Shown here: positions 41,891-64,000 of the stretch, piece after piece | How the letters are laid out: each line of letters opens with the position of its first letter | Position numbering within the stretch: position 1 is the first letter of the stretch | Virus record (IMG/VR): IMGVR_UViG_3300017527_000515 | Location: 32,001 to 96,000 of that record | Reading direction: 5' to 3' (one strand) | Length of the DNA: 64,000 nt | Source: a virus | Made by a program: the position numbers and the translations under genes | Notes under the pieces: generated by a model | Database searches by the model: none | Seen by the model: only the letters and a program-made list of their open reading frames with translations | Told to the model about the DNA's origin: nothing

Positions 41891-41892
41891 AT

Positions 41893-43789: not shown

Positions 43790-43801
43790 TTATCCTTCTC
43801 C

Positions 43802-44410: not shown

Positions 44411-44420
44411 GATTAGCTCC

Positions 44421-44822: not shown

Positions 44823-45430
44823 TATGCATCTCCTTGCTGCTCAACAAAATTTACCTGCATGATAACACCAGGTTTCTTGCCTTGGTCTTTTATTCTATCT
44901 ACATTAGGCTGGTTCTGTGCTCGAGTACTAGTTACCTCTCCTTTCTTTAACACATCACCACCGCCCGTCTCAATGGTGGGATCTTCCGGCGTATACGCCA
45001 ACTTACCGGTTCTGAGGCCAGGCCTAGTGACACTGTTTATTGCCACCCAAGTACCTCTAGTTGATCTACATCGTCTAGTATATTTCTTACCATCCAATCT
45101 AGATAAAATATCATTTCCACTTATGCTCAATATAACAAAGATTGGGTCATCTCTACAAGGAGTTATATTAGCGGTCCTACATATACCAGTAAATATTAAA
45201 TTAGCTGGGGAGTCTTGGCCTGCCCTTATAACAACCTGCTTTCCAAAGATATTACCCACAGTTCCAGCCCTGACTTTCATAGAAGCTGAGAAGGTAGATA
45301 TCTGCCCTCTGGATCTATCCACATTAAATGACATTATTATATTATCAGAAGCCATAGCAGCAGACGGAGTAACAGCTATTAAATTTCCCAGTGTTATAGA
45401 AGCCCTGATCTTTACCATTTGTATTGCCAT
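44822..45430 (-). CDS. Baseplate hub (gp27/late control D)-like N-terminal domain protein (202 aa), tentative
   Basis: MSFNVDRSRGQISTFSASMKV...GKQVVIRAG...LIFTGI...SISGND resembles hub barrel domains. Confidence 0.5.
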   Translation of the reverse strand: MAIQMVKIRASITLGNLIAVTPSAAMASDNIIMSFNVDRSRGQISTFSASMKVRAGTVGNIFGKQVVIRAGQDSPANLIFTGICRTANITPCRDDPIFVILSISGNDILSRLDGKKYTRRCRSTRGTWVAINSVTRPGLRTGKLAYTPEDPTIETGGGDVLKKGEVTSTRAQNQPNVDRIKDQGKKPGVIMQVNFVEQQGDA

Positions 45431-45439
45431 AATTTCCTC

Positions 45440-47524
45440 CTATTGCTCGATTGGACAGTTATGTATTGTAACCTGTACTTTGTCGCCTGCTCTAATAACA
45501 TCGTGCGTCATACTTATTGCCCATCGATCTCCGAATCCATCTATTCTTACCTTAAAGGTCATATTATCACCAACACTATCTATGATTGTGCCTGTAGCTC
45601 CTACATCCTCATTCATCTTTGCAGTAGGGCCGCCATCCACAGGAGTTAGACCACCTACCATATACGGACCTTCTGTTACTGATACTGTGTACGCACCTTG
45701 ATCAGAGTATGCATATCTTATGGAGTTTACTATACCTCCGCTATTACCAGTGCCGCCTAGTTGAGGATTACAACTTGGACCACAAGTATATACAGTCTCA
45801 GTCACTGAACTATTCATGTAGTCATAAAGAGTTTCTGCCATTTGCTGAGCTTTGAATTGTGCGTTATCATAATCCTCATCTTTAATGAATGAGTATGTTA
45901 GCGCCATACCACCGCCCTGCATATTATCCATAGCCTGTTCTAATTTCGTGTCTTCAAAATCCTCAACAGTTGTAGGATCATTATCGTGAAGTGGTAATTG
46001 ATCTATAGGGCCAGTAACGCCGGGTCCTCTATATCCTATTGGCGCCGGTATTTCCTCTACAACTATAGGCGCCACATAATATTTTAAATCTTCTGCTATT
46101 TCGAGACAGCGGGGAGTGCCCCCAGCTGTGATACCGTTTGGGTCTTGCACTACAATACACGGGGTTGTAACATCTGCATACACCCATATCTCTGTAACCA
46201 AAATACCCTTCGTCTTTGAGTGGGGAAACACAGTGCCAGTATATTCAGTATCTAAATCCTCGCCCAATATTTCAGCGTATTTACATGTGGGATTTATAAA
46301 ATATGCAGTCTCATGCCCATAAGAATAGGCGTCATTAGGTCTGGTATCTTTACCAAATACTATGTAAGGTACCTTTTGATCGTTCTCATCTTTATAAGCA
46401 ACAGCATAATCCCTACCTTCTGTTAACTTTCTGGATGTTTTTCTCTGAGTTTCTATAGTTAACATTAGAGTAGAGTTATCTTCTGTCATAGCCTCTAAAG
46501 TATTTTGATCATTTTTAGGTCTAGCAAAACATTCCTCTATGTCTAACCCTACTAAAAATACTGCTGATATGCCTGTAAGAAGATCAGTTGTGACACCCCT
46601 TATGGTTTCGAATCTAAACTCTGGCGGGACCGGAACTATTACACCATCGTCGGGGTTTACTTCCTCGCCCTGACCAGTCCAGCACTCAGCGCCATATATA
46701 TCTGGATTATATGTATTGAGATCTTGTATTTCTCCCATAAACGGACCATTCTCTGAGCCCTCAGTATCTCCTATTATTAAAGGTATAGATGTTTGATTAG
46801 CATATTGAATAGTAGTGTCTTTAGTTACAAACTCTCTTGGCGGTTCTTTATATATAGCATATCCCAATACTGCATCCCAAGGATTGTTGTCATCTATTTC
46901 ATATAAATTATCTATACCATCGTTATACGCTGTGTCTAACTGGGGGTCTTTAAATACTATAGTAGCGTATCTACTGAAAGATTCCCTATGACAATTATCT
47001 AGCATATCCTTCATACTATATATGGTTGTGGCATTGGTTCCCCATATAGGCTGCCATACCATTTCTTTTCTTGTTACTAATGGTTGGCCGCCTGTCACCA
47101 TCACAGCAGTAATATCATCTTTATATTGTCCTAATTGGGTCTCATAATATATATCAGTTATGCTGCCTGATCTACCACCAATAGGTACAAACTCCACTTG
47201 CCCATCTGCAGTTACCATGGCTTCATAGAAATACCCTCCGCCATCTTCTGCTGAATGATGTATCAACGACATATTAATTACTGTCCTAGCATCCATTCGT
47301 TTTATATCAAGGTCAATTAGATTACCTCCTATTGATGGGGTAGCGCAATCTATTTCATTAACTCTTAAAACATCATATGCTAGATTTTCTGGGCCTTCGC
47401 ATTCCACATAGTCAGACTCTCTTACCAAATCAACATCATTGAAATGCTCCCACGTATCTTGGTCTATTATACGAGACCCGGTTTCCTCAGCATTGTTATT
47501 TGTTTGATATAACTCTTGAGGCAT
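45440..47524 (-). CDS. Baseplate hub/distal tail-like protein (694 aa), tentative
   Basis: Immediately downstream of the TMP. C-terminal GIVNSIRYAYSDQGAYTVSV plus an OB-like tail (FKVRIDG...RAGDKVQV). Confidence 0.5.
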   Translation of the reverse strand: MPQELYQTNNNAEETGSRIIDQDTWEHFNDVDLVRESDYVECEGPENLAYDVLRVNEIDCATPSIGGNLIDLDIKRMDARTVINMSLIHHSAEDGGGYFYEAMVTADGQVEFVPIGGRSGSITDIYYETQLGQYKDDITAVMVTGGQPLVTRKEMVWQPIWGTNATTIYSMKDMLDNCHRESFSRYATIVFKDPQLDTAYNDGIDNLYEIDDNNPWDAVLGYAIYKEPPREFVTKDTTIQYANQTSIPLIIGDTEGSENGPFMGEIQDLNTYNPDIYGAECWTGQGEEVNPDDGVIVPVPPEFRFETIRGVTTDLLTGISAVFLVGLDIEECFARPKNDQNTLEAMTEDNSTLMLTIETQRKTSRKLTEGRDYAVAYKDENDQKVPYIVFGKDTRPNDAYSYGHETAYFINPTCKYAEILGEDLDTEYTGTVFPHSKTKGILVTEIWVYADVTTPCIVVQDPNGITAGGTPRCLEIAEDLKYYVAPIVVEEIPAPIGYRGPGVTGPIDQLPLHDNDPTTVEDFEDTKLEQAMDNMQGGGMALTYSFIKDEDYDNAQFKAQQMAETLYDYMNSSVTETVYTCGPSCNPQLGGTGNSGGIVNSIRYAYSDQGAYTVSVTEGPYMVGGLTPVDGGPTAKMNEDVGATGTIIDSVGDNMTFKVRIDGFGDRWAISMTHDVIRAGDKVQVTIHNCPIEQ

Positions 47525-47534: not shown

Positions 47535-50500
47535 TTAACCTACACCAGGTCTTGTAGCGAAGTTCTGTGCATCTTGTGCGTATCGTCTGGCTTCACCGAC
47601 TTCATACTGCATACGCCCCTCGAACCTAGTTACTCTGCTGGTTATTTCACTTATGTTATTTCTATTAGTATTAATATCATGTGTGACCTGATTCATAGCT
47701 TCTGACACTGCGCTTTGTATTTCAGGCTTCACATTATTAGCTGTCAAGGCTTTGGATTCTAGGTTAACCATTCTTTCCTCTAATTCTCCCTTGACTGTTA
47801 TTAGTTTGTCCTGTACATCAACTACTGCGTTAGATATTGAATCTAGGCTGTCTGCTCCTACAGATCCATTAGCTGATGGATTAACATCTACAGTGGCATT
47901 AGCCAGCGCCTGGCTTATAGCATTGGATATTTCCGAAGCTACTCCAGCAGCATCTACAGGTACGGTAACGTCGGCAGTATCAACCCTGACCACAGCGCTG
48001 TCGGTGTCTACCTTAACTACCGCGCCCTCCAAGTCTACTGGTACCTTAGCATCAGTTGTATCTACCCTAACTTTAGCGTCAGCTTCTACTTTAACTTCTG
48101 ATGATTCTATAGCACTCTTAACCTGATCTGCTATCTGACTAGCTACTTCACTACCATCTATTTTAACAGTGGTTGAGGTTAAGGATGCTCTAGTCAAATT
48201 ATCATCTACCATACCGCCCGCCTGGAATCCCTTAGGTAGTATGGTTTCTCCCTTCTGAGCAAACACCGTACCAGTTTGGGCAACAACTCCACCATTATGC
48301 ATCACTGGTCTAGATTTATTACTACTAAACGTGTCTTTATAAAACTGTTTAGGTACTTCGTAGAAACCCTGTTTCATTGCTTCGAACATTCTTCCCAGCT
48401 TCTCTCTTGCTGAGAAACCTCGGGTTTCTTTCTCGAAATCTTGTTTACGACCCTGGCCAGCTATTTTTATCTGGTCTCTTACTGCTCTTAGCTCAGCAGG
48501 TTCCAGTTTACCCTTACCGAATCTACCATATAACATAGCCAATGAGTCTACAGTTGCTGCGTCTTTGGCCATACCGAATTGGTTAGCTATATCCTCAGCA
48601 TTAATGGCTGCTTTTTCCAACATGGCCTTAGCAGCAGCAGCGCCTACCTCATCCCCTGCTTCTTTAAGTCTGACATACTCTTTAAATAGATGAGGACTGG
48701 CAAGAAATGCCAATCTAGGATCTTTTATTCCATATTTATTCTCATCAACCTTTTTACGAACGTCATGGAAATTTTTAGTAAGTTTTATATCCTTCATCAG
48801 AGGCTTGATCTTGTTCATGTCTACATTGCCGGACATAACCATAGCTTCTAGACTTTTTAACTCATCTTGTCTATTAAAGTTTGGATCATTCTCTGATAAA
48901 TATCTTAACTTATTGTAATATTCATAGGCCAGCTGGGTATCTCTACCTATACCTGCCGTACCGTATAGATTTTCTAAAACATTACGATCCGGTGCTTGAG
49001 GATCTACCTCGCCCTGCATAGCCTTTCTGCTTATACCAGCCACTAGTTGAGCTCTGGCTACCTTAGCACGTGTATCCTGTAGTTTCTTACCTGGGTTCGC
49101 ACCTGGGGTGGCCTCGTATCCAGGACCCACCGTTGGAAGCGGTAGTTGCCCTCTGGCCATAGCTTCTTTTCTTTCTTTATATGCTAATTCATTAAGGTCA
49201 TATTTAGATTGAACACCGTGGGATAGACCTTCCGCACTAACTATACCGGTTTTAGAATCGAACGTATAGTTGAATAGCCCTTTACCCTTAGGTGCTGGTA
49301 ATATACCAGGCTCTCTCAGTGCGTCATAAACTTCTTTATCCCTCTTAAGAGCTTGTCTATTCTCGCGTTGTATTGTTTTAGCATGCTCTGCTTGAATCTG
49401 GTTATAAACATCCACATTACCAGAAGCCTTTGCCGCAGCAAGTTGTTCTTCGTAGGTATGCTTACCTACTAATGCTTTCTCAGCGAACGCCTGCTCATTC
49501 AAAGCTGCCAATCTCTTACTTTCTTCCTGAACAGTTAACTCAGCAAATCTAGCAGTAGGTTGTCCAGCACCAAATGATGGATCTGGGTCTACTATACCTG
49601 TATTAACTCTATATGCTTTATTGTTTGCAAAAGTACCTTGATCTCGGCGTGCTGTAGTCATAGCGTCATCTGGCAAACCACCTACTATGTTACCGTTCTC
49701 ATCCAGCTCAACTATCTCTCCATTTATCTCGGTGAATCTTCTAGCCAGACCGCCCTCTGCATACTTCTTACGCTTCATCCTACCGCCCATGCCTTTTTTA
49801 TCTATAGCATCAAGTATATTAGTCTTGGTGTCTTTACTGGTAAGATAACTAAATGTACGGGCATCACTTCCCATTTCAGCAAGTTCTTCTTCTGTAGCTT
49901 CTACCTCACGGCCGAAGTAAAATTCTTTAGCAGTCTTAAGCCATTCGCCTATCTGGCCTATAATACCGCCTTCGGCGTAATGCTTACGCTTCATCCTACC
50001 GCCCATGCCTCTAAACTCTGCTGGTTCGGATAAGGCTATACCATACTTATGGTATATGTCATTTTTCATATCATCACTGAGTAATTTTCCCGCGCCTATA
50101 TTACGGAGAAACTCCCCAATTTTTCTTTTTTTCTCATGGCGTTGCTTAAGAGCGTCTAGTTGTTGTTTTAGTTTTTCCTTTTCTTCTTTAGATCGTACCG
50201 GCTCAGTTTTAGGTACGAAAGGTTTTATCTTACCACCATCACCATACTTCTTAATCATGCCGCCCATACCCTTACTATCTATGTCACCTGCGGCATCAAG
50301 TATATTTTTCTTGGTTTCTTTGCTGGTTAGATAGCTAGTGGCTCGACCGCTTTCGGCGCCTCTGGCTAAATCTTCCTCACTTACTTCTACATCCCTACCA
50401 AAAAAGAAATCCTTTGTTGTCTTTAGCCAATCTTTGATGCGGCCCGCCATTCCGCCTTCGGCGAAATGCTTACGCTTCATCATGCCGCCGCCGCCTTTAT

Positions 50501-53500
50501 TGTTGTGCGGGTCTACTGCATCAAGTATGTTCTTTTTAGTATCCTTACTTGTTAAGTAACTAAATGACCTGGCGTCTTCTGCCATTTCAGCTAGCTCTTC
50601 TTCTGTAGCTTCAACTTCGCGGCCAAAATAAAACTCTTTGGCGGTCTTTAGCCAATCACCAATCTGGCCCATAATACCGCCCTCAGCAAAACCAGTGAAC
50701 AATTTAGTATATTCCTCTACTAACGGGCTCTTAATTTCTCCAGCTTTGACTAATTTCACAAACTCTGCAAAGTTTTCTCGGCCAAATTTAGAAGCATCTC
50801 CTGTGAATCTCTCAGCATATTTAGACACTGGAGGTTGGGCTATAAAACTATCCATGAAATCCTTCATCTTCTGAAGTCTTTCTTTAGTTAGGGTCTTAGC
50901 TATCTCTGGATCATCTATATGTTTACCTATTAATGATGGATCTTTTAAGAATTTCTTTACAGCTGATTCTGTTACATGGCCTCCTATCTCATGCTCAAAT
51001 CCGCCCGCTACTACTTTTCTTCTTGATGCTAAATCAGAAGCTTTAGCCAAGCCTCTAGAAGATGAAACTATATCTTGTCCCTCTTTAAAAGTAGTAGTTA
51101 GCTTTTGTCCTTCCTTAGCCTTAGTACTTACCTTTAGATTAGGATTAGTCATAAGACCGGCTACAGGATGATTAGATCTAGCTAGTTTAAATTCCTCGTT
51201 AAGTATGTCTATATTTTTAGCTAAATCGGCCTTATTGGTTGCTTTACCTACAGACCCTGATAAATCCACTGCTGTATCTAGAGATTTAAGAGCCTTTCCT
51301 GATTTACCTAGATGCTTTATAGACCCAGGTACAAATGGCAGCACTGCTAGACCGGCCAATCCTCTACTCAAGGGACCCAGTTTCTCATCAGTGATAACAT
51401 CTATACCAGTTATAGCTTCTTGAGCGCTTTTAACATCACCCACTATAGGGGAAGCGTCTAATACAGTAGAAGTAGCAAGCTTACCAAAAGACTTTAATTC
51501 GTCTTTAGTAGGAGGTCTGTAAATCTCATCATATTCTGCCTTGGTCATAAATGGTTTTCCTGTAATGGTGCTAACAGGAGCTCCATACGCAGATCTCATT
51601 TTGCGGCCTGAAGGACCTACATATAAAGGATTAGTTTCATCATACTCCCTAGAAGAAACCAACTTGTCAGGAAATCCTCCGTTAGCCATCCCCGGAGGTA
51701 ATTGACCTTCCTTATTCATATATTCAAGAGCAGACATTCCTAACTTAGAAGCAGATGCTGCTTTGATTACATATTCACCTGGGCTTAACATGGCAGGGAC
51801 CTTGTCTTCTTTAGGACCACCTTCACCGAACACTTTACCGCCCTGAGCTCTGCCCGTTCTTTTCTCATGCTCAGTTCTTGAGTCTATAGATTTCACATTG
51901 AATTTGGGGTCTGTGTACGGGACTTTTTGTATTCTACGAAGTCTTTCCGCCTCGTGTTGATCATAACCCTTATCCACAAACGCCTGTCTATTAATATCTG
52001 GAGCTTTAGATTTAATAACATCCAGCAATGCTTTGATGCCACCATCAATATTATTTAGAACTGATGTTTGATCAGTCAATACCCCAGTTTGTGCATCAAT
52101 ACTCTGTTTTATTTCCCCCTGACCAGCAGCAGTTTTTTCAGTCTGTACGTTTATAGACTGATCCACCTTGTTAAATCCAGTCTTGTTTTCCTCTATTAGT
52201 CTTAACCTGGTTTCCTCATGTGCATTAGCTCTTTCTGCCGCGGCCTCTTCTAATTGATTTTTATATTCCTGTAGCTGTAATAATTTCTTATTCAGCTCTA
52301 TTAGCTCAGTTACTCCTTGAGGTGTTCTCCCCTCTTCTATATCTTTTTTATTTAGACCTATTATATTCTCTCTTGCTGTCTGTACTGCCTTAATCTTGCT
52401 GTCTATAAGAGAAATAATCTTTTGGGTTTCCGCCTGTCTCTGTCTGGCCGCAGCAATATGATCTGGCATCTGTGGACCAACAAAAGATTGCTCGGCTGGT
52501 GTATAACTTCTTAAATATTTTAAGGCCTCTGACTCGTAAGCAAAACCACCGCCTTGTAGCCCTGGTAGTTTACCATACTTATTTATGTATTCTAAATTCT
52601 TACGACCTAATTTAGCTGCAGATGCTTGGTTTATTACGAATTCTCCAGAGCTAAGCATGGCCATTATGTTATCATCTTTTGGTCCACCTGGTCCGAATAT
52701 AGCTCCGCCAGCGGCCTTTTTAATAGCCGAATCAACCACCTTCACTTCTAAAGGATCTCCTAACTTGCTTATCATCTGTTCCATATAACCGGCTACAGAT
52801 GTAAGACCTTCTTTTGATCCTCTGGTACTTTCTGCTATACTAGATAGATGGTCTATCATTAGCTCTTGATTAGATGCTAGACCCATCTTCTGGAATTCTT
52901 TTCCGTACTGTTCTTTTAAGGAATTCTTTAAGCCTTCGAATTTACTGGTTAACTCATCAATTTGCTCTACAGTTATACCCCTACGTTCTTTCTTACCCTC
53001 AGCATTTATTATCTCATCGGGGGCCGCCTTTAGAAACGCACCGGCCTGTTCTTGTATAGCTTTAGCAGTTGCTTTGAGTTCTGGAGACACATTATTGTTT
53101 CTAGTTATACGTTCTAGATCAGTCATAAGTGTTAGGACTGGATCAGTTTGTCTCTTAAATCTCTCATCCTGTTTTTGCTGCTCTTTAGCGCGAGCTTCGC
53201 CTTCGTATTTAGAATCTAGAGACAGATAACGCTGCAGCAACTCAGACGTTTGGCCTTGCTGCTGCATGGCTCGGAGGATCTCTGCTTCCTCAACGTTTCT
53301 TCTGGTGTCAAATTCCTTTAGGTTAATTCCACCTCTGGCTGCCTCTAATCTAGTGGCTGGGTCTACAAGCTGTAATGCGTCTGCTCCACTTCCGCCAAGA
53401 AATTTATCTGTTTTAGCTCTGAACTCTTTAATACTAGCTAATTCATCTATAGCGTCCTGTACTGATACTTCGGTAAGTGCGTCATTAAGTTTGAACATAG

Positions 53501-56500
53501 CCTCACCTAATAACACTGTTCCGTTATAGGCTGCGACCACAGCGGGGTTCATAGCATTAGCTAGACTATCAGCATATTTTTTAGTAGACTCTATAGTCTT
53601 ATCTAATTCTTTCGCAGCATTGGCATTCTCACCAGCTGCTGATTTGGCGTATTCAGCTCTTCTCTTCTCTGCTTCGGCTAACTTTTTCTCAGCCTCCATC
53701 AACTGTTGATGAATTCTCATCTTACCTTCATCTACAGATCTTTGTTGTTTAGATATTAGCTCGTCTCTTTCAGATTTTATACCAGCAATTTCCGAGTCCA
53801 TACCCTCTAAGGCAGACAGTTGGTTATAAACACCATCTTCCTGGTATTTTTGTCTTAGCTGCTCTAGTCTAACTATTTCCTGTTCGGTCCTTGTTATGAT
53901 GTCCTGAGTGCTCTTAAAAGCAGTCATAAAACCTCTAAGGTCTTCATCAGCAGAGGCGAAAATTCTCTGCTGTGTGGACATCCCACTTCGTTCTAGAGGT
54001 AGTTGTGCGTCTCCTGCGAAACCACGAGTGTCTCTATTTAGAAAGGCACCTAAGCTATACTTTCTGGCTACCTCTAATTGAACAGCCTGATTGGCCAAGT
54101 CTCTAACAAAATCTTGTACCTGTTTGCGTATACCCTCAAACAGTTCCAATCTATGCATAGTATCTGCATTGCCCTCCATTTCTCTAGTGAGCGCAGCTAT
54201 TTCACTGTTCACGCCGCCAGTAGTCTGGGCCAATGCATCTAGAGCTTGCTGGGCATTATAAAACACATCCAATGCTTGTTTCTGTGCTTCAGAGTCCAAA
54301 GGCTTTTTAAGGTCTTCTTGGGCTCTTTTAGATTGATCAAGTAATTCCGTTATTATCAATTCAGCTACTTGTGGCCATTCACTGGCTATCTTATCCAGTA
54401 GTTCTCCTCTCTGCTCAGATAGTCTTTCTATGTCTGCTTTTCTAACTCCAGGACCAGTTAGTTCAGCGAAAGTCCCGGCCAATGTAGAAGCTAGGGCAGC
54501 CGCTAAAATTTTCTTTAGGCCGCCAGCACCGCCTTTAGAAGCCTCGTCTCTAAGAACCGCAGCCCTTTTCTCTATCTCAGCCTCCGGTAAGTCCTGTAAA
54601 CCGGTTAGTCTGGCCTTAAATGCTTCTCTTATGCCTTCTCTGGTAGTACCAGTTATCTCTTTTACTCGGTTCTCAAAATCACCCTTGAACTCCTTACCTG
54701 CTGAGCCTAAATCTTTTAAGGTACCGATAGATACATCACCAGATTCTCCCACTTCTTTGAGTGTTTTACCTAGCTCTTTACCGAATTCCTTAGCTGATTC
54801 TGGTAGCTCTTCTCCTGTTATCTTAGATGCTGCCTGCATAGCGGCGTATAGAACTAGAGAAGCTCCACCTATACGTTTAACGTTGGTTTCACTTATACCA
54901 AATGCTCTAGCTAGTGCTATTGTTCCAGTCTCAAGATTGGCTAGGCTAGCTACTATAGTATTGAAATCCAAAGATTTTTGTTCGGCAGCTATTGCTTTTT
55001 CTAAAGCTGCTACCTCAGACTGTCCAGTGGCTATTCTACCCTCGTCTCCTGCCTTTTTGGCTTCCAATAAAGCAGCTTTTTGGCCAACTAATTGCTCGTT
55101 CATCACGGCCAACGCTGCTGATGAATTACTCTTACTGAATGATTGGAATGCAGCAACGGCTGCTGAGACCTTCAATAAATTCTTAGAGTTAAAGAAAGTT
55201 TTTTCAGATAATTTCTTCTCTGCTTCTTGTATAGCAACCAGCTGTTTGAGCTCATCACTCTCAGCAAAGCCAGGGATTGATTTTAGTTTGGGTATTGGAA
55301 TTGGCCCGCCTACTCCGGGTAAAGCAGTAAACCCCCTCAATCCTAACTTTGTTCTAGGACCAGCGTCAGTTTTAAATCTCTCGGTAAGTTCGTTAGACTG
55401 TAATCCTCTGAAAGATCTTTGTAGATATTCCTCTCTGCTCAAACCTGCTCCAGGTAATAACCTAGAAGGACTTAGACCTACAGCAGCCTGTCCTCTACCA
55501 AAGGTGGTGAATTTGTTCATGGTGTCTACTAAAACATTTATCCTTTCTTCCAGAACTGCACGTTCTCTAGGACTGGCACCTTCTCTAGCGCCTGCTGCTT
55601 TATGTATTTCATGGGCTATCAACAGAGATATACGTCTTGCTTCTGCTCCACCCTGCTCATCTTCTGGTCTACTATCAAATTCTGCCACTCTTTCCTGTAG
55701 ACCTATTATTTTATCAGTAAGTACCTGATTGGTCTGACCCAATGAAACTAACTCTTCCAGGCTGGTAGCTATAGGATCTAAGGCAGTAACATTACTCTTA
55801 GTTAAGTTGTTTATATCTTTAGATAATGTAGCCCCTACCACATCACCAAGTACAGTACTTTTTTCTATAAATCCTTTTATTTCCTCTGGGGTAGCATCAG
55901 GGCCTATAACAGTCCCTATACCTTGTTGTGTAGCTGTAATAGTTTCTATTGCCACCTTAGCTCTAGCTAATTCTTCTCTACGTTGTATAAGAGCTTGTCG
56001 TCTTACATCAGCAGACCTGAAGTTTTGAGCAGCTCCCTGGTATTGAGGTTGATTTAATAGAGCTAGTTGTTTTACAGTAAGATCCTGTACACTACGAACA
56101 CCAGTATCTATATTATCCAAACCCTCAGGTAATCCAGCCAACAAACCAGAGGTGACTTTCACAGATTCCTGACGAGCCTCTTCTATAGCTATATTTTCAG
56201 CAAGAACTCTAGTACCTTGCTCTATAGTCTTAGACAGATCAGCAAACACAGCTGCGTATTGTACAACCACTTGGTTATTCTTAAGTACAGCTTGTTGTGC
56301 TAATAGCTCCTGATATACCTCCTCAGAAGCATCGGAAGTTTTTTCTAATGATCCTGCTTTATCAAATCTTCGTACAGATTTATTATATTTTTCCATGGGC
56401 TCTAAGAAATATTTTCTAGTATCTGATGCCCATTGCTTCTGTAAATTAGTAACTTCGCCAAACTCTCCGGTTTGAAAATTAAACCCTCTCTGACCTTGTA

Positions 56501-59500
56501 GTGCTGTGGTTGTGGATATATCACTATAGAATCTAGCACCTAGATCAAAATCTTTCTTGAATGCTTTCTCGTCTAAACCTACTATACCGGCAGCGGCTCC
56601 TGTTACAAAGGTACTTAAGTTCTCTAATCTGTTTTCTAATTCTGACTGTACTCTACCAGCAGGGAATATGGCTTCTACCATATCTGCTACTTCGTCAATA
56701 GATTTGGTTTCTAACTCGCCGACACCTTCTTTGGCTTTATAATTATAATAGGTAACAAAAGCTTCTAGAACCCCGTCTACATTCTTCTTTACCTCTACTA
56801 CACCCTGCTGACCAGCTATACCTGCTCTGGCTGCGGGCTGAGTTAAGAATGTTACTATGTCGCCGGTAACTAATTTAGTTCCTTTCTTGGCCTCTTTTTG
56901 TATTATACCAGATCCTTCCAATAGCGCCTTAGTAATATCCTTAGCGGCGCCTATAACAGCTCTTCTTGTAGGAAATACCTGTTGTAATATAGTAGCCCCT
57001 TGCAAGTCTCTACCTTGTATCTCTGGAAGATTTAGAAACTCAGGGAAGTTTATAGTTGATCTACCACCTGCTGCAGTAGGATCAAACAGTGTAGATGTGC
57101 CCTTGGGAGCATTTGGAAATTTAAGTGCTCTCTCTAACTCTCTTTGGGCATTTGCCGCATTTATAACTGGATCTACTTCCACAGCAAACTGGAAGCCCCT
57201 AAGTAGTTCCGGGTCTCCTAGTAATCTAGCTATAGTATCTCTATCTACAGCTGAAGCTCCTGGAAATTTGAATATACCAGCTAGAGTTTTATTAAAATCC
57301 TTAGCTGTACCATCATATATTTTTTTAAGTTTTCCTAAAGCATCTTGTAGAGTAGATATATCTTCATCAAACGCTGTAGACAGTGGATTCTGTGATCTGG
57401 CCAACAGAAGATCATTTAACCTGCCGGTTAGCATCTCCATTTGTTTAGCTGGAGAAACCTTAACTATATCTTTTAATAAAGGACCGAATCCTGGTACTTC
57501 CCCTAAAGCAGTGCCTAATATATTCTTTATCGATTCCCCAAAATCTACCTTAGTTAGATCCTGAGTGAATCTCTTCAATACATCTATATCAGTCTTGGCC
57601 AGTTCCAAAGCGCTGGCTCTTTGTAGGTTAGCTATATATTCTTTATAGTCGCCAGATAGTTTAAGTATAGCGTTACCTTGTTTATCATAACTCAACACTA
57701 GCTCATTATTTACCATGGCTAGTTCGTTAGCCCACTTGGTAGCATCTTTTTGTATATCACCTAATGCTATTAGAGGATGAGTGTAATTATCTGATGCTTT
57801 TCTAACCTCTTTTAACTTAGGATCTGCCTCTACCGCGTTAACTTCTTTTACTTTCTTTTGTAATCTATCATATTGTCTAGATAGGGTAGTTAAATTCTTA
57901 ATTTGATCTTCTTGTACTCTTCTGGAATTATATACAGACTGTGCATAATCCTGAGCAGTCATTCCTGTTTCTTGTATTCTACTTGCGAGTTCCTTGAAAG
58001 CCGGAATTAATGCTCCTACTGTTATAGCCATAGGAGTTATAGCCTTAAGCAATCCTGGATCAGTATCACCTATAAATTTAGCAAACTGAGCACCAGCTTC
58101 TCCGAAGTACTTACCGAATAATTCAAATGCTCTGCCTGAATTTTTAGCTACCTCCTCCATCACATTTATTACAGCTATAGTAAGATCGTCTTTCCATCCA
58201 GGTATCTTAGTAGCAAGTAGTTGTCCTACATCAGTGAATAAATCAGTGCGCTCGGCCCATTTCTTAACTTCGTCACCTAGCCCTTCTATTGTTTTACCCA
58301 TCTCCTCGGCAGAAGTTCCTCCGGCAGCTGCCCATGTGTTAAACGCCATACCAGCTTCTTTGATTACGTATGTTAATTTTCCAAAACCAGAATGTAGATC
58401 ATCTAAACCAGCAGCCTTTAGAGCATCCGGGACGCCTTTAGCAAAAGACTTTATACCTTCTAACTGAGGTCCTCCTTTGCCTCCGAAAATCTCAAAGGCA
58501 GATATGTCGAACTCTTTAGATACAGATCTAACAAAAGCGTCTATTACTCCTTTACCCTTACCAAATACTTCCACTAACTTATCAAATATATCCACTCCCT
58601 TAGCAGCATAACCAAAGAATAATGTAAGCGCTGCACCGGCAGCTTTAACCGGGGTAGGTATAGCGGACATGAATTCGAATACGGTCTTAAGAGCTTTAAG
58701 TCCACCCTTGAACACTGGGAATATAAACTTACCAAGCTCCATCTTCAGCTCAGTAGCAGCTGCTCTGGTTTGCTCTAACTGTTTAGCGTACGTTTTCATA
58801 ATCTCAACGTTACGTCTTTCAGCCGAGCCCTTAGAGTTAGTACTGTCCTCTATGGCGTCCAGTACCTCATCCCAATTATCCATAGCAACCAACAGTGCGT
58901 TATACTGTCGGGTGCCACCTAGAGATTGTGCTACATTAAGTTTTTGGGCATTAGTAAGCATAGCCCACTGTTTGGACAGATCAGATAAAATATCAAAACC
59001 ACGTCTATTCTCGCCGGTTGCTGTTATAGTAGGAATACCTATTTCTCCAAGAGCCTTAGGACCCTTTTCCGAGAATAAACGACGGGCAATGAATCTCATC
59101 GCCGTACCGACTTCCTTACCAGACTGTCTGGTTACAGAACCGATACCAGCCACAATACCATTTAACTCATTGAATGTGAAACCAGCATTCTTGGCTGCTG
59201 CAGCAGACTTCTTGATAGCGTTGGCCATATCAGCAGCGGTAATAGCGTGTCTGGCCTCAGTTTCACTCCAAGCGTCTAGTGCCATATCCGCTGATCCCAT
59301 CTCAGTTCCGAATGATTTCATGGCAGCAGTTAGTGCCTCTGTAGCTTCTGAGGCTGACAGTGTAGAAACGTTAGCTGCTAGAGTAGAAACTCTTGTTCTT
59401 TCTATAACTTCTGATTGTTTTAAACCTTGTTGTGCAAAGATCTTCATACCACGAAGAACTTCATTTATACTAACTCCGTATTCTTTTGCGAACATTACAG

Positions 59501-62500
59501 CAGACTGAGTTAGAGCATCAAAGTCAGCTTCTAGTGGGTTCATAACCATACGAAGCTGTGCTATACTAACTTCTATGTCAGCCAATTCACCTACTGAATC
59601 CTTAAGTTGTTGTACCCCACCATATACTAAGGTAGCTGCAGCTCCCCACATAATAACACGTCTGGCAGCAGATCTAAATGTTCCGCCTGCCATGTGCATC
59701 TTATCTATAAGGTCTGTAGTTCTATGGGTGTAATTCTCAACTTTACCAGCTGTATCATCAGTGGTCTCGCCGAACTTTTTAAAGTCGTGTCTGAAATTTC
59801 TTAGAACATTGCCAGCAGAGTCTGTCACCTTCTCAAAATAACTAAAGGATTCTCCCACTCTGGGACCAGTTCCTGGTGTGTCTGACTCAGGACCAGGCCT
59901 TTCGGCAAATTGTTTAAATTTCTCTATATTTCTTCTATGTAATGCTTGCTGTTGGTTAGGAGGTAAGAAAGTAGGAACCTTAACAGCGCCAGTCTCATAC
60001 TCTCCGAAGGCTCCGCGCTGTAACCTACCTAGGTCTATCTTTCCGTATACCTGCTCTATTTGTTTTAGATATTGTAGTAGAGATCTAACCTGAAATTTCT
60101 TCTCTACGTCTGTCTGGAATTCGTCTGATAAATTAAACCTAGAATACTGAGATAATGCTTCTCTTAGTACCCTAGCCCTCTTAGCTACCTTTTCAAAATC
60201 CCATGCCTCTGTAGCATCTCTCCCCTTTCTCTCGAAAAGATCTACATCCATCAGCACTCTCTTGGCAGCTTCATCCACGTCAGCTAGTTCATCTACTAGC
60301 TTTCTAATCTCTTCGGCCGGGGCCCCTAAGCCTCCAGCTTCAAGTTTATCTATTAAGTTTTTATATATACCCCTGGTGCGCTCGTCGCCCTCACCAAAAG
60401 GTTGTTTGGTTTTTTTATACAGATCTTCCGGTGTCTGGAATACCCCAGCCTGTTTAGCTAGATCTGGTAGTAAGAATCTTCTGTCTTTGGTATATATGTC
60501 TGTAGTTTTACCTAGACTCTTAACTATAAACTCACGTGATTTCTCCACTCTCTTTCTGAAGTCAGAAAACTCTCTTGTAGCAGGGCCCTGAGCGTTTGCT
60601 ACATCGAATACCTCTTCTGCCTGTTTGGCCTGGAAAATAAGAAAATCACCCATAGATATACGCCAAAGCTGCCACGCCTTCATAGATTCTTGGAAGGTTA
60701 TGTAGTCTCCTTCTACTAACTCAGTCAGTAATTTAGAGAACTGTGGGCCTGTGGGTGGAGCTTCCCCTGCTCCGCCAGAGAGAGCAGATTTAATATCAGT
60801 GTGCATCTTCTCTATGTTTTCATTAAAATTTAGATCACTTAAACCAGACTGTATGGCTATAGACCCCTGATGTAGCTCTGAGATAGCAGCTAGCTGATCT
60901 TTAAGAGGATCAGGAAATTTCTTTACCTTATCTTTACCTAAAGTTCTTTCTTCTGGAGTACCGCCAGTAATCTTTTCTCCGAACGTAGCTCTACCGTATT
61001 CAGGATCTTCCTTCATAGCCTGGCCAATATCTTTAGCTCTATTCTCGGCCGCTTTAAAGTTAGCTCTGGTTTCTTTGTACACCCCTTCTTTGCCTTCCAT
61101 GAACTCAAAGGCTTTCCTAGAAAGTTGTACGTACTCCTCTATGAATTCATCTGATTGCTCAGTAACTCCATAGATCTTATCTAACTCTTGTTCTAATAGG
61201 TAAGATTTTAGATTTCTAGCTTTGGAGAATGCCGGAGATTTACCACTAACTCTCTTACGTAGTTTACTAACGAGGTCTTGGTGTTCCTCTGGTACATCTT
61301 CTATACTGGTAGATAAATCTAGTACATAGTTATTTACTAGTTCTCTAGCTGTCTTCAGTGTCTCTAGATCTGACTTCAGTCTTTCTGGGTCGAAGCCGAA
61401 TGTTACTGATTTAGCGGGTGTGGTTAGACCAGCATCTTCAGAAGGTATAAAGTCTATAGATGCTTGGACTCCTGGAGCAGCCTGTCCTGACTGCACAAGA
61501 GCGCCTAGATATACATTAAGCTGAGATCTATAGTCCTCTAGCTTCTGTCTAATATGTTCTGGTATTTCTTTATCTAATATATCTGCTAGGGCTATGGTAC
61601 CTTCTGGTCCTATGGCTCTAGATATACTTTCAAATTTAGCGAAGGTCTCACCGGTAGTTTTAATATCAGATATTTTTTCTACCTGACCTTGTGCGTTTTT
61701 ATAGGCTACATCAATGAAGCCAGTGATGGGACCTCTGACTCCCTCAACAAACTCTTTAGGCTTCAGGTATACAAATTTTTCTATCTCTACCTCTCCACCT
61801 CTACCAGCAGCCTCAGCCTCATCCTTAATTTTCTTCTGCATTTTTGCATGGAGAGCTGTACCAATATCGAATGCTGATTGTACATAATCACTCTTTAGCT
61901 CTTCTGCATCAAGTCCTAACAACTGTCCTGTGATGGCTTCTAGTTGAGACCCCTGACGGTTGCCCTTTATCAGTTCTCCTAAGTCTGCGCCGCCACCTTT
62001 AAACTTACTAGCAGTAAATACATTATTCAGATTTGTAAAAAATTGTTTTTTAAGTTGATTATATTCTTGTTCTAAATTAACATCAGCTCCCCTAGGACCT
62101 ACTTCTACTCCTGGGAAGTATTTCTTCTGTAATTTATCGAACTCAGGTTTACCTATGTTCTCAGAGTGTCTATCAAAATCACTTGATATTTTTTTATAAT
62201 CTTTTAGCTGTGATTGTAGGCTTCTTATCGAAGCTTCGCCATGCTGATCGTGTTGATCTCTAATCTCCGACAGTGCTGATTTTGTTTGTTGCTGTGGGGC
62301 AAAGTCAGGATTAAGCTGGTCGGTATAATCTCTTCTGGCGCCAGTACCACCGCCGCCGCCAAAGAACACTCCCACACCTTGGGCTACACTGTGTATATGT
62401 ACTGGAACTACTCCTCCAGTCATAGGGAATTGTCCGCCGACACCGCCTCCACCAAATATAGTACCAGAACCTCCCGGACCGTGTATGCCCTTAGCTTCTT

Positions 62501-64000
62501 CTCTCATAGCCTGGCCCTGGATAGCAGCGGCCTGCATGTCCTGGGAGAATTTATAGCTTCTAGCACTTTGTCCAGTGGCCTTAGGTCTGGAAAGATCACT
62601 GGCTTCTGGAAATAACGATAGAGTTGTTATACCTTCCTTGGCTCTAGTAGATAAGACATCTAATATCCTATCCATTTCGTAAACTATTTCAGCTTTGGCT
62701 GCCAGCTCCTGGGCATAACTCTCAGCTGCTACTTCTACTTCTTCTTTATTAAAATCTGGATCTTTAGAAAGTAGCTTTTCTCCATGCTTTCTAAAATCCT
62801 TCAATAGCTTCTCAGAAACATCTATCTTCTCTTCCCTAGTCAACGTGGGAACTCCCACAAGATCAGCCAGTTTTTCTATCTCTTTAATCTGATCTTCTGG
62901 AGCCTTTTTTAATATATCTCTAGTAAGACTAGGTAATTCTTCCTCTAGTAGAACTCTGCTTTTTAGAGCATCTAGACTTCTGTCGACTTTGGTTATATCA
63001 AATCCTTCAGCTTGAAGCTTCTTAAACTCATCGTCTATTAGTAATTGGTCTCTATGGATATTATCCAGAGTACTCTTGACTAATTGAGAATAAGCTCCAG
63101 CATCTAAACCTTCAGCAGCTTCAGCTATAGCGTCTTGTATGTTTCTAGCAGTAGCCTTGGCTTGTTTATATTTCTTTAATAATTCCTCTTGCTCTTTAGG
63201 TTTCTTTCTTAAGAATTGTACACCTTGAGGCACAGTAGGTTCCCCATACCTCTCCGTGAATCTCTTTTCTTGTCCCTTAAGATTAGATTCCTGACGTGTT
63301 ATATATAATGGTAGATTAGGAACTGTGATATGTTCACGTACATTGATACCACCTGCTGCTATTTCTTCTTGTATAAGATTTTTAGCATAAGATTTAGGAT
63401 CTCCTATCTGCGCACGCTTATCTGGGGATAGCTTTTCTATATTCCTTAGAATACCTTCCATGGCGCCTTCTCTTACCTGGTCTGCCATTTCGCGGAAGAA
63501 TGATTCTAAACCAGTAGCCTTGACTGCCATGTCAATCAGCTCGTCTCTATCAGCTCTGCTCAAATCGAAGGAGCTATACTCAGTACCTCTAGCTTCATAA
63601 AGTTGCTCTAGTTCTTTTCGTATAGTAGAGGTATCCATCTTACCAAGTCTTAGCTTGGTAGACTTATTAACTGCCGCTTCAAAGTCTGCTATCTCACCCT
63701 CTGGGAGTAAGGAAGCCCATAGTTCAGTTACCCCATCATACCCTTGTGCTATACGGCTTTGTATTTCACCGGCTATGGTAGACCCACCAGCATGCTTAAC
63801 ATCCATACCCTTCTGGATGGCAAACCTAAATACCTCATTAAATTTGGTATAAAAGTCTCTGGCTATCTCATCCTGGCTGCCGCCTAATATTCCTAGATTA
63901 GGATTACGGCCAGAGAAGCCCTCACTGGGTTTAAATTCAGCCCCTCCAGTACCTAACAGACCAGAACCGAATCCAACACTAGATTCTGCTAATCTATTAA
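47535..64000 (-). CDS. Giant multidomain tail tape measure protein (TP901-type core) with PD-(D/E)xK nuclease, pre-toxin TG and zincin-like domains; 5' end outside the window
   Basis: TP901/PhageMin_Tail-like core at about 58600-59700 (AKEYGVSINEV..FAQQG...ATEALTAAM...DLANA-like DMANAIKKS...TRQSGKEVGTAMRFI...LGGTRQYN). The frame has no stop from 63807 to 64000, so the track's ATG at 63806 is probably internal. Confidence 0.9.
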   Translation of the reverse strand, partial: NRLAESSVGFGSGLLGTGGAEFKPSEGFSGRNPNLGILGGSQDEIARDFYTKFNEVFRFAIQKGMDVKHAGGSTIAGEIQSRIAQGYDGVTELWASLLPEGEIADFEAAVNKSTKLRLGKMDTSTIRKELEQLYEARGTEYSSFDLSRADRDELIDMAVKATGLESFFREMADQVREGAMEGILRNIEKLSPDKRAQIGDPKSYAKNLIQEEIAAGGINVREHITVPNLPLYITRQESNLKGQEKRFTERYGEPTVPQGVQFLRKKPKEQEELLKKYKQAKATARNIQDAIAEAAEGLDAGAYSQLVKSTLDNIHRDQLLIDDEFKKLQAEGFDITKVDRSLDALKSRVLLEEELPSLTRDILKKAPEDQIKEIEKLADLVGVPTLTREEKIDVSEKLLKDFRKHGEKLLSKDPDFNKEEVEVAAESYAQELAAKAEIVYEMDRILDVLSTRAKEGITTLSLFPEASDLSRPKATGQSARSYKFSQDMQAAAIQGQAMREEAKGIHGPGGSGTIFGGGGVGGQFPMTGGVVPVHIHSVAQGVGVFFGGGGGTGARRDYTDQLNPDFAPQQQTKSALSEIRDQHDQHGEASIRSLQSQLKDYKKISSDFDRHSENIGKPEFDKLQKKYFPGVEVGPRGADVNLEQEYNQLKKQFFTNLNNVFTASKFKGGGADLGELIKGNRQGSQLEAITGQLLGLDAEELKSDYVQSAFDIGTALHAKMQKKIKDEAEAAGRGGEVEIEKFVYLKPKEFVEGVRGPITGFIDVAYKNAQGQVEKISDIKTTGETFAKFESISRAIGPEGTIALADILDKEIPEHIRQKLEDYRSQLNVYLGALVQSGQAAPGVQASIDFIPSEDAGLTTPAKSVTFGFDPERLKSDLETLKTARELVNNYVLDLSTSIEDVPEEHQDLVSKLRKRVSGKSPAFSKARNLKSYLLEQELDKIYGVTEQSDEFIEEYVQLSRKAFEFMEGKEGVYKETRANFKAAENRAKDIGQAMKEDPEYGRATFGEKITGGTPEERTLGKDKVKKFPDPLKDQLAAISELHQGSIAIQSGLSDLNFNENIEKMHTDIKSALSGGAGEAPPTGPQFSKLLTELVEGDYITFQESMKAWQLWRISMGDFLIFQAKQAEEVFDVANAQGPATREFSDFRKRVEKSREFIVKSLGKTTDIYTKDRRFLLPDLAKQAGVFQTPEDLYKKTKQPFGEGDERTRGIYKNLIDKLEAGGLGAPAEEIRKLVDELADVDEAAKRVLMDVDLFERKGRDATEAWDFEKVAKRARVLREALSQYSRFNLSDEFQTDVEKKFQVRSLLQYLKQIEQVYGKIDLGRLQRGAFGEYETGAVKVPTFLPPNQQQALHRRNIEKFKQFAERPGPESDTPGTGPRVGESFSYFEKVTDSAGNVLRNFRHDFKKFGETTDDTAGKVENYTHRTTDLIDKMHMAGGTFRSAARRVIMWGAAATLVYGGVQQLKDSVGELADIEVSIAQLRMVMNPLEADFDALTQSAVMFAKEYGVSINEVLRGMKIFAQQGLKQSEVIERTRVSTLAANVSTLSASEATEALTAAMKSFGTEMGSADMALDAWSETEARHAITAADMANAIKKSAAAAKNAGFTFNELNGIVAGIGSVTRQSGKEVGTAMRFIARRLFSEKGPKALGEIGIPTITATGENRRGFDILSDLSKQWAMLTNAQKLNVAQSLGGTRQYNALLVAMDNWDEVLDAIEDSTNSKGSAERRNVEIMKTYAKQLEQTRAAATELKMELGKFIFPVFKGGLKALKTVFEFMSAIPTPVKAAGAALTLFFGYAAKGVDIFDKLVEVFGKGKGVIDAFVRSVSKEFDISAFEIFGGKGGPQLEGIKSFAKGVPDALKAAGLDDLHSGFGKLTYVIKEAGMAFNTWAAAGGTSAEEMGKTIEGLGDEVKKWAERTDLFTDVGQLLATKIPGWKDDLTIAVINVMEEVAKNSGRAFELFGKYFGEAGAQFAKFIGDTDPGLLKAITPMAITVGALIPAFKELASRIQETGMTAQDYAQSVYNSRRVQEDQIKNLTTLSRQYDRLQKKVKEVNAVEADPKLKEVRKASDNYTHPLIALGDIQKDATKWANELAMVNNELVLSYDKQGNAILKLSGDYKEYIANLQRASALELAKTDIDVLKRFTQDLTKVDFGESIKNILGTALGEVPGFGPLLKDIVKVSPAKQMEMLTGRLNDLLLARSQNPLSTAFDEDISTLQDALGKLKKIYDGTAKDFNKTLAGIFKFPGASAVDRDTIARLLGDPELLRGFQFAVEVDPVINAANAQRELERALKFPNAPKGTSTLFDPTAAGGRSTINFPEFLNLPEIQGRDLQGATILQQVFPTRRAVIGAAKDITKALLEGSGIIQKEAKKGTKLVTGDIVTFLTQPAARAGIAGQQGVVEVKKNVDGVLEAFVTYYNYKAKEGVGELETKSIDEVADMVEAIFPAGRVQSELENRLENLSTFVTGAAAGIVGLDEKAFKKDFDLGARFYSDISTTTALQGQRGFNFQTGEFGEVTNLQKQWASDTRKYFLEPMEKYNKSVRRFDKAGSLEKTSDASEEVYQELLAQQAVLKNNQVVVQYAAVFADLSKTIEQGTRVLAENIAIEEARQESVKVTSGLLAGLPEGLDNIDTGVRSVQDLTVKQLALLNQPQYQGAAQNFRSADVRRQALIQRREELARAKVAIETITATQQGIGTVIGPDATPEEIKGFIEKSTVLGDVVGATLSKDINNLTKSNVTALDPIATSLEELVSLGQTNQVLTDKIIGLQERVAEFDSRPEDEQGGAEARRISLLIAHEIHKAAGAREGASPRERAVLEERINVLVDTMNKFTTFGRGQAAVGLSPSRLLPGAGLSREEYLQRSFRGLQSNELTERFKTDAGPRTKLGLRGFTALPGVGGPIPIPKLKSIPGFAESDELKQLVAIQEAEKKLSEKTFFNSKNLLKVSAAVAAFQSFSKSNSSAALAVMNEQLVGQKAALLEAKKAGDEGRIATGQSEVAALEKAIAAEQKSLDFNTIVASLANLETGTIALARAFGISETNVKRIGGASLVLYAAMQAASKITGEELPESAKEFGKELGKTLKEVGESGDVSIGTLKDLGSAGKEFKGDFENRVKEITGTTREGIREAFKARLTGLQDLPEAEIEKRAAVLRDEASKGGAGGLKKILAAALASTLAGTFAELTGPGVRKADIERLSEQRGELLDKIASEWPQVAELIITELLDQSKRAQEDLKKPLDSEAQKQALDVFYNAQQALDALAQTTGGVNSEIAALTREMEGNADTMHRLELFEGIRKQVQDFVRDLANQAVQLEVARKYSLGAFLNRDTRGFAGDAQLPLERSGMSTQQRIFASADEDLRGFMTAFKSTQDIITRTEQEIVRLEQLRQKYQEDGVYNQLSALEGMDSEIAGIKSERDELISKQQRSVDEGKMRIHQQLMEAEKKLAEAEKRRAEYAKSAAGENANAAKELDKTIESTKKYADSLANAMNPAVVAAYNGTVLLGEAMFKLNDALTEVSVQDAIDELASIKEFRAKTDKFLGGSGADALQLVDPATRLEAARGGINLKEFDTRRNVEEAEILRAMQQQGQTSELLQRYLSLDSKYEGEARAKEQQKQDERFKRQTDPVLTLMTDLERITRNNNVSPELKATAKAIQEQAGAFLKAAPDEIINAEGKKERRGITVEQIDELTSKFEGLKNSLKEQYGKEFQKMGLASNQELMIDHLSSIAESTRGSKEGLTSVAGYMEQMISKLGDPLEVKVVDSAIKKAAGGAIFGPGGPKDDNIMAMLSSGEFVINQASAAKLGRKNLEYINKYGKLPGLQGGGFAYESEALKYLRSYTPAEQSFVGPQMPDHIAAARQRQAETQKIISLIDSKIKAVQTARENIIGLNKKDIEEGRTPQGVTELIELNKKLLQLQEYKNQLEEAAAERANAHEETRLRLIEENKTGFNKVDQSINVQTEKTAAGQGEIKQSIDAQTGVLTDQTSVLNNIDGGIKALLDVIKSKAPDINRQAFVDKGYDQHEAERLRRIQKVPYTDPKFNVKSIDSRTEHEKRTGRAQGGKVFGEGGPKEDKVPAMLSPGEYVIKAASASKLGMSALEYMNKEGQLPPGMANGGFPDKLVSSREYDETNPLYVGPSGRKMRSAYGAPVSTITGKPFMTKAEYDEIYRPPTKDELKSFGKLATSTVLDASPIVGDVKSAQEAITGIDVITDEKLGPLSRGLAGLAVLPFVPGSIKHLGKSGKALKSLDTAVDLSGSVGKATNKADLAKNIDILNEEFKLARSNHPVAGLMTNPNLKVSTKAKEGQKLTTTFKEGQDIVSSSRGLAKASDLASRRKVVAGGFEHEIGGHVTESAVKKFLKDPSLIGKHIDDPEIAKTLTKERLQKMKDFMDSFIAQPPVSKYAERFTGDASKFGRENFAEFVKLVKAGEIKSPLVEEYTKLFTGFAEGGIMGQIGDWLKTAKEFYFGREVEATEEELAEMAEDARSFSYLTSKDTKKNILDAVDPHNNKGGGGMMKRKHFAEGGMAGRIKDWLKTTKDFFFGRDVEVSEEDLARGAESGRATSYLTSKETKKNILDAAGDIDSKGMGGMIKKYGDGGKIKPFVPKTEPVRSKEEKEKLKQQLDALKQRHEKKRKIGEFLRNIGAGKLLSDDMKNDIYHKYGIALSEPAEFRGMGGRMKRKHYAEGGIIGQIGEWLKTAKEFYFGREVEATEEELAEMGSDARTFSYLTSKDTKTNILDAIDKKGMGGRMKRKKYAEGGLARRFTEINGEIVELDENGNIVGGLPDDAMTTARRDQGTFANNKAYRVNTGIVDPDPSFGAGQPTARFAELTVQEESKRLAALNEQAFAEKALVGKHTYEEQLAAAKASGNVDVYNQIQAEHAKTIQRENRQALKRDKEVYDALREPGILPAPKGKGLFNYTFDSKTGIVSAEGLSHGVQSKYDLNELAYKERKEAMARGQLPLPTVGPGYEATPGANPGKKLQDTRAKVARAQLVAGISRKAMQGEVDPQAPDRNVLENLYGTAGIGRDTQLAYEYYNKLRYLSENDPNFNRQDELKSLEAMVMSGNVDMNKIKPLMKDIKLTKNFHDVRKKVDENKYGIKDPRLAFLASPHLFKEYVRLKEAGDEVGAAAAKAMLEKAAINAEDIANQFGMAKDAATVDSLAMLYGRFGKGKLEPAELRAVRDQIKIAGQGRKQDFEKETRGFSAREKLGRMFEAMKQGFYEVPKQFYKDTFSSNKSRPVMHNGGVVAQTGTVFAQKGETILPKGFQAGGMVDDNLTRASLTSTTVKIDGSEVASQIADQVKSAIESSEVKVEADAKVRVDTTDAKVPVDLEGAVVKVDTDSAVVRVDTADVTVPVDAAGVASEISNAISQALANATVDVNPSANGSVGADSLDSISNAVVDVQDKLITVKGELEERMVNLESKALTANNVKPEIQSAVSEAMNQVTHDINTNRNNISEITSRVTRFEGRMQYEVGEARRYAQDAQNFATRPGVG
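47940..48095 (-). repeat. About 8-aa VxVD repeats near the TMP C-terminus
   Basis: VKVEADAKVRVDTTDAKVPVDLEGAVVKVDTDSAVVRVDTADVTVPVDAAG. Confidence 0.85.
49750..50690 (-). repeat. Three about 72-aa in-frame repeats within the TMP, with an identical 28-nt segment
   Basis: AEGGxxGxIxxWLKTxKxFxFGRxVExxEExLA...SYLTSKxTKxNILDA occurs three times. cttacgcttcatcctaccgcccatgcct is present at 49767-49794 and 49983-50010. Confidence 0.95.

Follow-up and report, generated by a model that had tools for sequence, protein, structure and literature searches.

The stretch analyzed here, hereafter the window, covers 64,000 nucleotides (bases 32001-96000) of the single 115,457-bp contig of the IMG/VR virus record IMGVR_UViG_3300017527_000515, in which almost all genes lie on the minus strand. 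Its right part is occupied by the gene of a tape measure protein (TMP), an open reading frame (ORF) of 8,081 aa located at genome positions 79535-103780, with a good Shine-Dalgarno site ahead of its start. The ORF leaves the window at its right end, and its C-terminal 5,487 codons are found at window positions 47535..64000 on the minus strand; residue numbers preceded by w refer to the translation of window 47535-63998 (-). A TP901-type TMP core, which starts about 1,460 residues into the window part of the ORF, was recognized by both the Pfam model PF10145 (86.6 bits for a cut-off of 33.2) and the NCBIfam model TIGR01760 (148.5 bits for a cut-off of 28.8). The C-terminal models of the lambda TMP, PF09718 and TIGR01541, gave no match at E ≤0.1 in Pfam and E ≤1 in NCBIfam. 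The last 1,500 codons of the ORF carry eleven glycine motifs which, as judged from sequence comparison, are the bookends of one conserved junction module present in full, short and mini forms, and which may be the sites where this giant protein is cut.

The motifs had been proposed in an original prediction made from the DNA letters. Translation of the region and listing of every GG located all eleven within a few bases of the claimed sites, on the minus strand and in one ORF: KKAAGG (52709), GLQGG (52553), RAQGG (51842), MANGG (51680), FAEGG (50681), HFAEGG (50456), YGDGG (50237), HYAEGG (49970), KYAEGG (49754), MHNGG (48293) and FQAGG (48218). Also present are the four basic linkers with Met that had been described together with them (NKGGGGMMKRKH, SKGMGGMIKK, RGMGGRMKRKH and KKGMGGRMKRKK). 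The label of AxGG-type motifs is literally correct for seven of the eleven, the other four reading LQGG, GDGG, HNGG and QAGG. The motifs are beyond chance: [FY][AG][ED]GG occurs six times, always inside the same 760 aa of the TMP, for 0.48 occurrence expected in the 38,434-aa proteome. They are not independent events, and self-comparison and alignment distribute them into three repeat classes, four motifs flanking two full units of the lambda gpH type, five heading B repeats or their remnants, and two flanking a short unit C. Double-glycine leader peptides, which are N-terminal, 15-30 aa long, end in GG and are cut by C39 peptidases, were considered and rejected, all the motifs being internal to the 8,081-aa chain.

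Class A consists of two units of about 70 aa, 57-60% identical, which start with [KR]-A-x-GG and end with x-x-x-GG: A1 (w3748-3819, 52542..52757; bookends KK|AAGG and GLQGG) and A2 (w4041-4108, 51675..51878; bookends GR|AQGG and MANGG). Segment L1 (w3820-4040, 51879..52541) lies between them and is missing from the single-unit relative P0003. Class B is a 75-aa repeat headed by [FY]AEGG, with three good copies starting at w4437, w4512 and w4674, namely B1 (w4437-4511, 50466..50690; FAEGG start, GGGGMMKRKH end), B2 (w4512-4584, 50247..50465; FAEGG start) and B4 (w4674-4745, 49764..49979; YAEGG start). Between the last two, alignment revealed the degenerate segment X (w4585-4673, 49980..50246), which starts with YGDGG, ends with GMGGRMKRKH and has an unrelated 80-aa filling. 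The [FY]AEGG heading also opens, as YAEGG, the conserved C-terminal region R (w4746-5232, 48303..49763), kept in the relatives P0003, P0004, P0021 and P0039 and missing from P0020. Class C is a 30-aa terminal unit (w5233-5262, 48213..48302) between MHNGG and FQAGG (MHNGG..KGETILPKGFQAGG), kept in 11 viral contigs and followed by the C-terminal end E (w5263-5487, 47538..48212), conserved across the family. All these blocks are on the minus strand. The claim of the original prediction that distinct units are delimited by the motifs is borne out: cassette T (w4109-4436, 50691..51674), flanked by MANGG and FAEGG, carries a PT-TG domain (51285-51473) and then a zincin-like part with an HExxxH motif, HEIGGH (50976-50993), and an ENFAEF helix.

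To define the module, a profile of the full unit was built from 45 units of 15 other giant TMPs, this TMP being left out; it corresponds to no curated family. The profile recognized A1 (65.1 bits), A2 (71.4 bits) and residues 728-789 of lambda gpH (21.7 bits, E 7e-6), and the two full units with a GE(F/Y)V core that had been proposed here are thus found again by a profile made without them. When 15 units, taken from this phage and from nine viral contigs, were aligned (alignment A5), G24, G29, G31, D36 and A54 proved invariant and G25, G45, E46, G58, N66, G78 and G79 nearly so. Both GG pairs belong to these positions, together with the G-x-G, a single Asp, a single Asn and the Gly-Glu pair of GE[FY]V; conservation ends immediately outside both GG pairs. 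The logo of 52 N-terminal and 43 C-terminal bookends reads [K/R/F/Y]-A-x-G-G-x-[I/V] at both ends. A second profile, made from 14 C units of relatives, recognized unit C of this TMP with 61.7 bits and gave no significant match with lambda gpH. On the basis of these profiles, of the unit alignment and of the bookend logo, the eleven motifs are assigned to a single module in three forms. The full form (two copies) runs from one bookend to another through G-x-G..D, then PAML-x-x-GE[FY]V and a single helix; the short form is present as one copy near the C-terminus; the mini form, reduced to the bookend, stands at the head of the degenerate segment X, of region R and of each of the three B repeats.

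These copies are ancient, and selection at the protein level maintains them: synonymous sites are saturated while residues are conserved. B1 and B4 share 88% aa identity with proportions of synonymous and nonsynonymous differences (pS and pN) of 0.77 and 0.08, A2 and the unit of the relative L002 share 88% aa identity with pS 0.81 and pN 0.09, and the ratio of nonsynonymous to synonymous substitution rates (dN/dS) between A1 and A2 is 0.23. At the motif itself, DNA is shared over no more than about 11 bases. The motifs had also been suggested to be recombination joints; in the sense of recent DNA exchange at the motifs, this idea is not supported, the synonymous sites being saturated. The B repeat (window 49764-50690, -) is under strong purifying selection, is confined to this TMP lineage and, in relatives, always adjoins the zincin cassette.

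The original prediction had further suggested that the starts of the MKRKHYAEGG type are former small cargo genes fused in frame, and that the motif is a sorting signal, which would be common to other virion proteins. Both ideas are highly improbable, and for the B repeats the proposal is largely refuted. No in-frame ATG with an upstream Shine-Dalgarno sequence was found at the linkers, where the Gly codons are GGC or GGT and hence provide no ribosome-binding site before the Met, though the phage uses strong ones elsewhere. Moreover, the Met-containing linker is missing in P0003, the homology between B repeats starts at [FY]AEGG and not at the Met, and no free-standing homologue of the B repeat was detected among 1.84 billion representatives; taken together, these results leave former gene starts unsupported. 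The point in favor of fused genes comes from cassette T, the N-terminal part of which, through the PT-TG domain, has many free-standing homologues of 200-500 aa starting near the first residues of the cassette, one of them from a viral metagenome. As regards a sorting signal, [FY][AG][ED]GG was found in none of the other 78 ORFs, and no further match to the full-unit profile or to that of the 75-aa B repeat was obtained in the six-frame translation of the genome.

The fate of the blocks was then compared among relatives. The closest ones, P0003/L002 (6,555 aa) and P0004, are collinear with this TMP through the ruler at about 50% identity and divergent downstream, and the fragments P0018, P0020 and P0021/P0039 add other arrangements. 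The block order is A - L1 - A - T - B - B - X - B - R - C - E in this phage, A - B - B - T' - B - R - C - E in P0003, A - T'' - linker - R - C - E in P0004, A - B° - T - .. - B° - C - E in P0020 and B - T - B in P0018. In P0003, P0004, P0018, P0020, P0021 and P0039, the A, B, T and R blocks are thus differently ordered and every join occurs at xxGG; for instance, cassette T follows MANGG|FP here and FAEGG|FP in P0018. The ends of homology blocks (high-scoring segment pairs, HSP) fell within 6 aa of a motif GG in 27 of 49 cases for 4.7 expected, a count equalled in 0 of 10,000 random draws, but this figure overstates the case for motif borders because the ends are not independent, the relatives being akin and the units repeated, and because a conserved motif tends to terminate alignments. 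These results support the view that the modules are the borders where related giant TMPs differ in cassette content, and they agree with the expectation that gain and loss of cassettes in relatives would map to the motifs. Eleven more distant giant TMPs, from viral contigs of 37-234 kb, have only A, C and E in common with this TMP; the 400-1,400 residues between their A and C units show no detectable similarity, and Pfam analysis of 10 inter-unit regions of relatives gave nothing credible. Global alignments of the whole giant TMPs were scrambled and were discarded. One further candidate, P0019 (16 matched stretches), was judged unrelated: it is a repetitive, Cys-rich protein with repeats of about 96 aa, each with LLQYAAEGG.

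The function of the bookends can be approached through the T5 and lambda TMPs, the only ones shown to be cut (PMC12617516); the SPP1 genome paper does not mention TMP cleavage. In T5 pb2, the cut was mapped after R1127 by mass spectrometry (PMC10038345) and the released pb2C has 92 residues (PMC12617516), i.e. 1219 minus 1127. It is the only residue-level cut known in any TMP. The pb2 sequence at this place is SFVPR(1127)|AEGGMMYPG, i.e. SFVPR|AEGGMMYPGVSYQMGEHGTEVVTP, so that, in the bookend pattern, the bond cut is the one that joins positions -3 and -2. [KRFY]A.GG.[IVM] occurs only once in the 1,219-aa pb2, at 1127-1133, and this occurrence spans the mapped cut. Seven of the eleven motifs studied here (AAGG, ANGG, AEGG four times and QAGG) fit the 7-residue bookend pattern exactly, the fit being one of pattern only, and the A units read IKK|AAGG and TGR|AQGG. 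In lambda, direct reading of gpH 728-789 gives FHFATGG .. HRGEFV .. helix .. GYATGG, that is one full unit, directly preceded by the cut region of the protein. Lambda gpH is cut to gpH* and gpHC in a Gly-rich region, the exact site and the protease not being known (PMC12617516). The Gly-rich stretch encoded by lambda gene H (L001:143-2704) contains three extra AxGG (AIGG 707, AVGG 711 and ASGG 718). Cuts at the lambda AxGG motifs would yield C-terminal fragments of 14-15 kDa, near the published value of about 14 kDa.

Since the T5 TMP is cut at the same kind of motif, cleavage of the present TMP is plausible, and by extension from pb2 we consider, with a probability of about 0.5, that the bookends are the cut sites of a TMP polyprotein, carried by the conserved junction module. 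Several points weigh against this reading. Neither the full-unit nor the short-unit profile detects T5 pb2, so that homology to pb2C was not found, and the link with T5 is, at the level of sequence, a post hoc match to a short pattern. The residue before the T5 cut is an Arg, whereas here it is basic only at A1 (K) and A2 (R), the bookends of the B type having F or Y. The dependence of the HSP ends, noted above, goes in the same direction. Finally, the monomer model of the full unit shows little order, with one helix and a predicted local distance difference test (pLDDT) score of 62, too poor for a fold search; in this model the unit does not look like a self-contained enzyme, and such disorder equally suits a docking or oligomerization element.

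This last point leads to a serious rival, which we regard as somewhat less probable than cutting: the bookends and units would be structural joints only, flexible glycine hinges with a short docking or trimerizing element that keep the register of the chains within the tail tube or their anchoring at the tip and allow insertion of cassettes with no disturbance of the ruler, the bookends not being cut in this phage. The lack of a compact fold in the monomer unit is in agreement with such a joint, as are the strong protein-level conservation, which suits a binding element, and the docking of TMP C-terminal ends as trimers in the hub of Douge, lambda and T5; the restriction of known TMP cleavage to T5 and lambda also favors it. 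Against a purely structural joint stand a T5 cut situated exactly within the bookend pattern and a lambda cut in the AxGG-rich stretch adjoining its unit, and a hinge alone leaves unexplained the conserved aromatic or basic residue and the Ala before GG, as well as the I/V after it.

If the bookends are cut, the TMP polyprotein would be processed during tail maturation or ejection, like T5 pb2 at R|AEGG, and cassettes, the PT-TG/zincin block for example, would thereby be freed as polypeptides of their own, which would precede the DNA on the way down the tail. For such cutting, the predicted N-termini would be AAGGAIFGPGGPK, AQGGK, ANGGFPDK, AEGGIMGQIGDWLK, AEGGMAGR, AEGGIIGQIGEWLK and AEGGLAR, and the computed fragments about 5, 27, 6, 36, 8, 8, 10, 8, 54 and 24 kDa. 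Two proteases are candidates, the embedded zincin and an enzyme of the host, the latter as reported for T5.

The PT-TG pre-toxin domain of cassette T (PF14449, w4176-4238) was recognized by Pfam with 46.7 bits for a gathering score of 23.5 and an E value of 3e-12. The helical part that follows, with HEIGGH and the ENFAEF helix, was modelled with a pLDDT of about 88, and the N-terminal sheet of the zincin-like part without confidence. In the fold search, the best relevant match was 2l0r, the catalytic centre of anthrax lethal factor (Z 4.3, root-mean-square deviation 4.2 over 88 residues, 22% identity), a Z value below the level that separates helical bundles. The wide search with VIA gave nothing above Z 5.1, and no match was obtained between the cassette-T profile and PDB sequences or between the cassette-T alignment and viral contigs. 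The motif is HEIGGH (HExxxH) in this phage (window 50976-50993, -), and all six close relatives have HExxH there; either the HEIGGH is tolerated as a variant, as reported for certain peptidases of polyvalent proteins (PMC5512222), or it marks an inactivated copy.

That this zincin-like domain is itself the processing enzyme acting at the bookends, as proposed for polyvalent-protein metallopeptidases, seems distinctly unlikely. According to Iyer et al. 2017 (PMC5512222), no domain is commoner in injected phage polyvalent proteins than the zincin peptidases, HEXXXH forms included, and these peptidases are proposed there to act on their own carrier proteins. Both the confident model and the presence of an HExxH/HExxxH helix with a downstream ENFAEF-type helix in all six close relatives would suit a peptidase, as would the weak resemblance to lethal factor. 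Against a role in processing, the domain has no Pfam or PDB sequence match and a fold match below the level that sets helical bundles apart, the eleven distant relatives keep the joints mostly without an HExxH motif, and T5 and lambda are cut without any such domain. Its position behind a PT-TG pre-toxin module points rather to an effector role.

The phage is far from anything described, 19 of the 20 proteins flanking the TMP gene (window 30749-47524 and L016:7831-19403) having no PHROGs match at E 0.001 and the remaining one three weak matches. Comparison of the region with 50,697 phage records gave no match by megablast and, by tblastn, a 56-aa unit match in Gordonia phage Lilbeanie as the sole result. 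A scan of viral contigs with the single protein was negative, a search for longer homologues with the C-terminal 742 aa returned none, candidates being crowded out, and the protein atlas gave weak leads at most. The whole 8,081-residue ORF (genome 79535-103780) contains no cysteine. About 700 bases past the right end of the window (L016:686-724, -, genome ~96,686-96,724), the TMP ORF encodes AKLDFDGDEIAVH, which we take to be nearly the catalytic NADFDGDQMAVH loop of the multisubunit RNA polymerase beta' subunit. This sequence is identical letter for letter in the relative P0003, within a 64.5%-identical block. For the N-terminal 2,593 aa, Pfam gave one weak RNA_pol_Rpb1_2 match (E 0.0095) and PHROGs no match; PDB sequence search, PHROGs and homologue names added nothing for the RNA-polymerase-like region. 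In the N-terminal extension, window 61635-61886 (-) has a weak match to phrog_1706 (CRISPR/Cas-associated, E 0.0024) and, by eye, a nuclease-like D..E.K pattern. A second glycine-rich element, GPGGSGTIFGGGGVGGQFPMTGGVVPVHIH .. VFFGGGGGTG (window 62343-62474, -), lies far upstream of the TMP core and may be another joint.

TMPs are usually seen as rulers, sometimes with one wall-degrading domain. In this phage and its uncultured relatives, the tail end of the ruler is made of swappable blocks parted by a joint that is strongly conserved. Should this joint be a processing site, it would provide a simple rule for the loading of cargo and its release through the tail, predict the position of the lambda gpH cut, which is not known to date (PMC12617516), as a bond immediately ahead of an AxGG motif within residues 707-737, and give exact peptide ends for virion mass spectrometry. 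A wider proposal, which we consider rather unlikely, is that the TMP is a polyprotein delivery device and that a bookend code, cut at -3/-2, is common to lambda, T5 and hundreds of giant TMPs: the zincin or a host enzyme would free the RNA-polymerase-like part, the nuclease, the ruler and the toxin-like cassettes into the host through the tail, and the code would predict the lambda cut.

Compared with known systems, T5 pb2 has a single site, its cut R|AEGGMM preceding ..MGEHGTEVVTP, a sequence similar to the short unit; the released 92-aa C-terminus is credited with muralytic activity. Lambda gpH has one unit and no cargo cassettes, whereas two full, one short and five mini copies are present here. 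The TMP gp16 of mycobacteriophage Douge (PDB 8ZDO, 1,699 aa) has two full units, at 964-1010 and 1413-1515, as in this phage; residues 1658-1699 only are resolved in its structure, which gives no structural information on the unit. In polymorphic toxins, PT-TG also precedes a variable C-terminal domain and many small PT-TG relatives exist, but it stands behind LXG, WXG, type VI secretion system (T6SS) or contact-dependent inhibition (CDI) trafficking domains, whereas here it is placed midway along a phage structural protein. A further parallel is with the polyvalent proteins of phages and conjugative elements (PMC5512222), which are likewise very large injected multi-domain proteins with RNA polymerase, nuclease, toxin-like and zincin peptidase domains. 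The word 'tape' does not appear in PMC5512222, and in the present phage the carrier is the tail ruler itself, in which the borders between domains are marked by a specific conserved joint.

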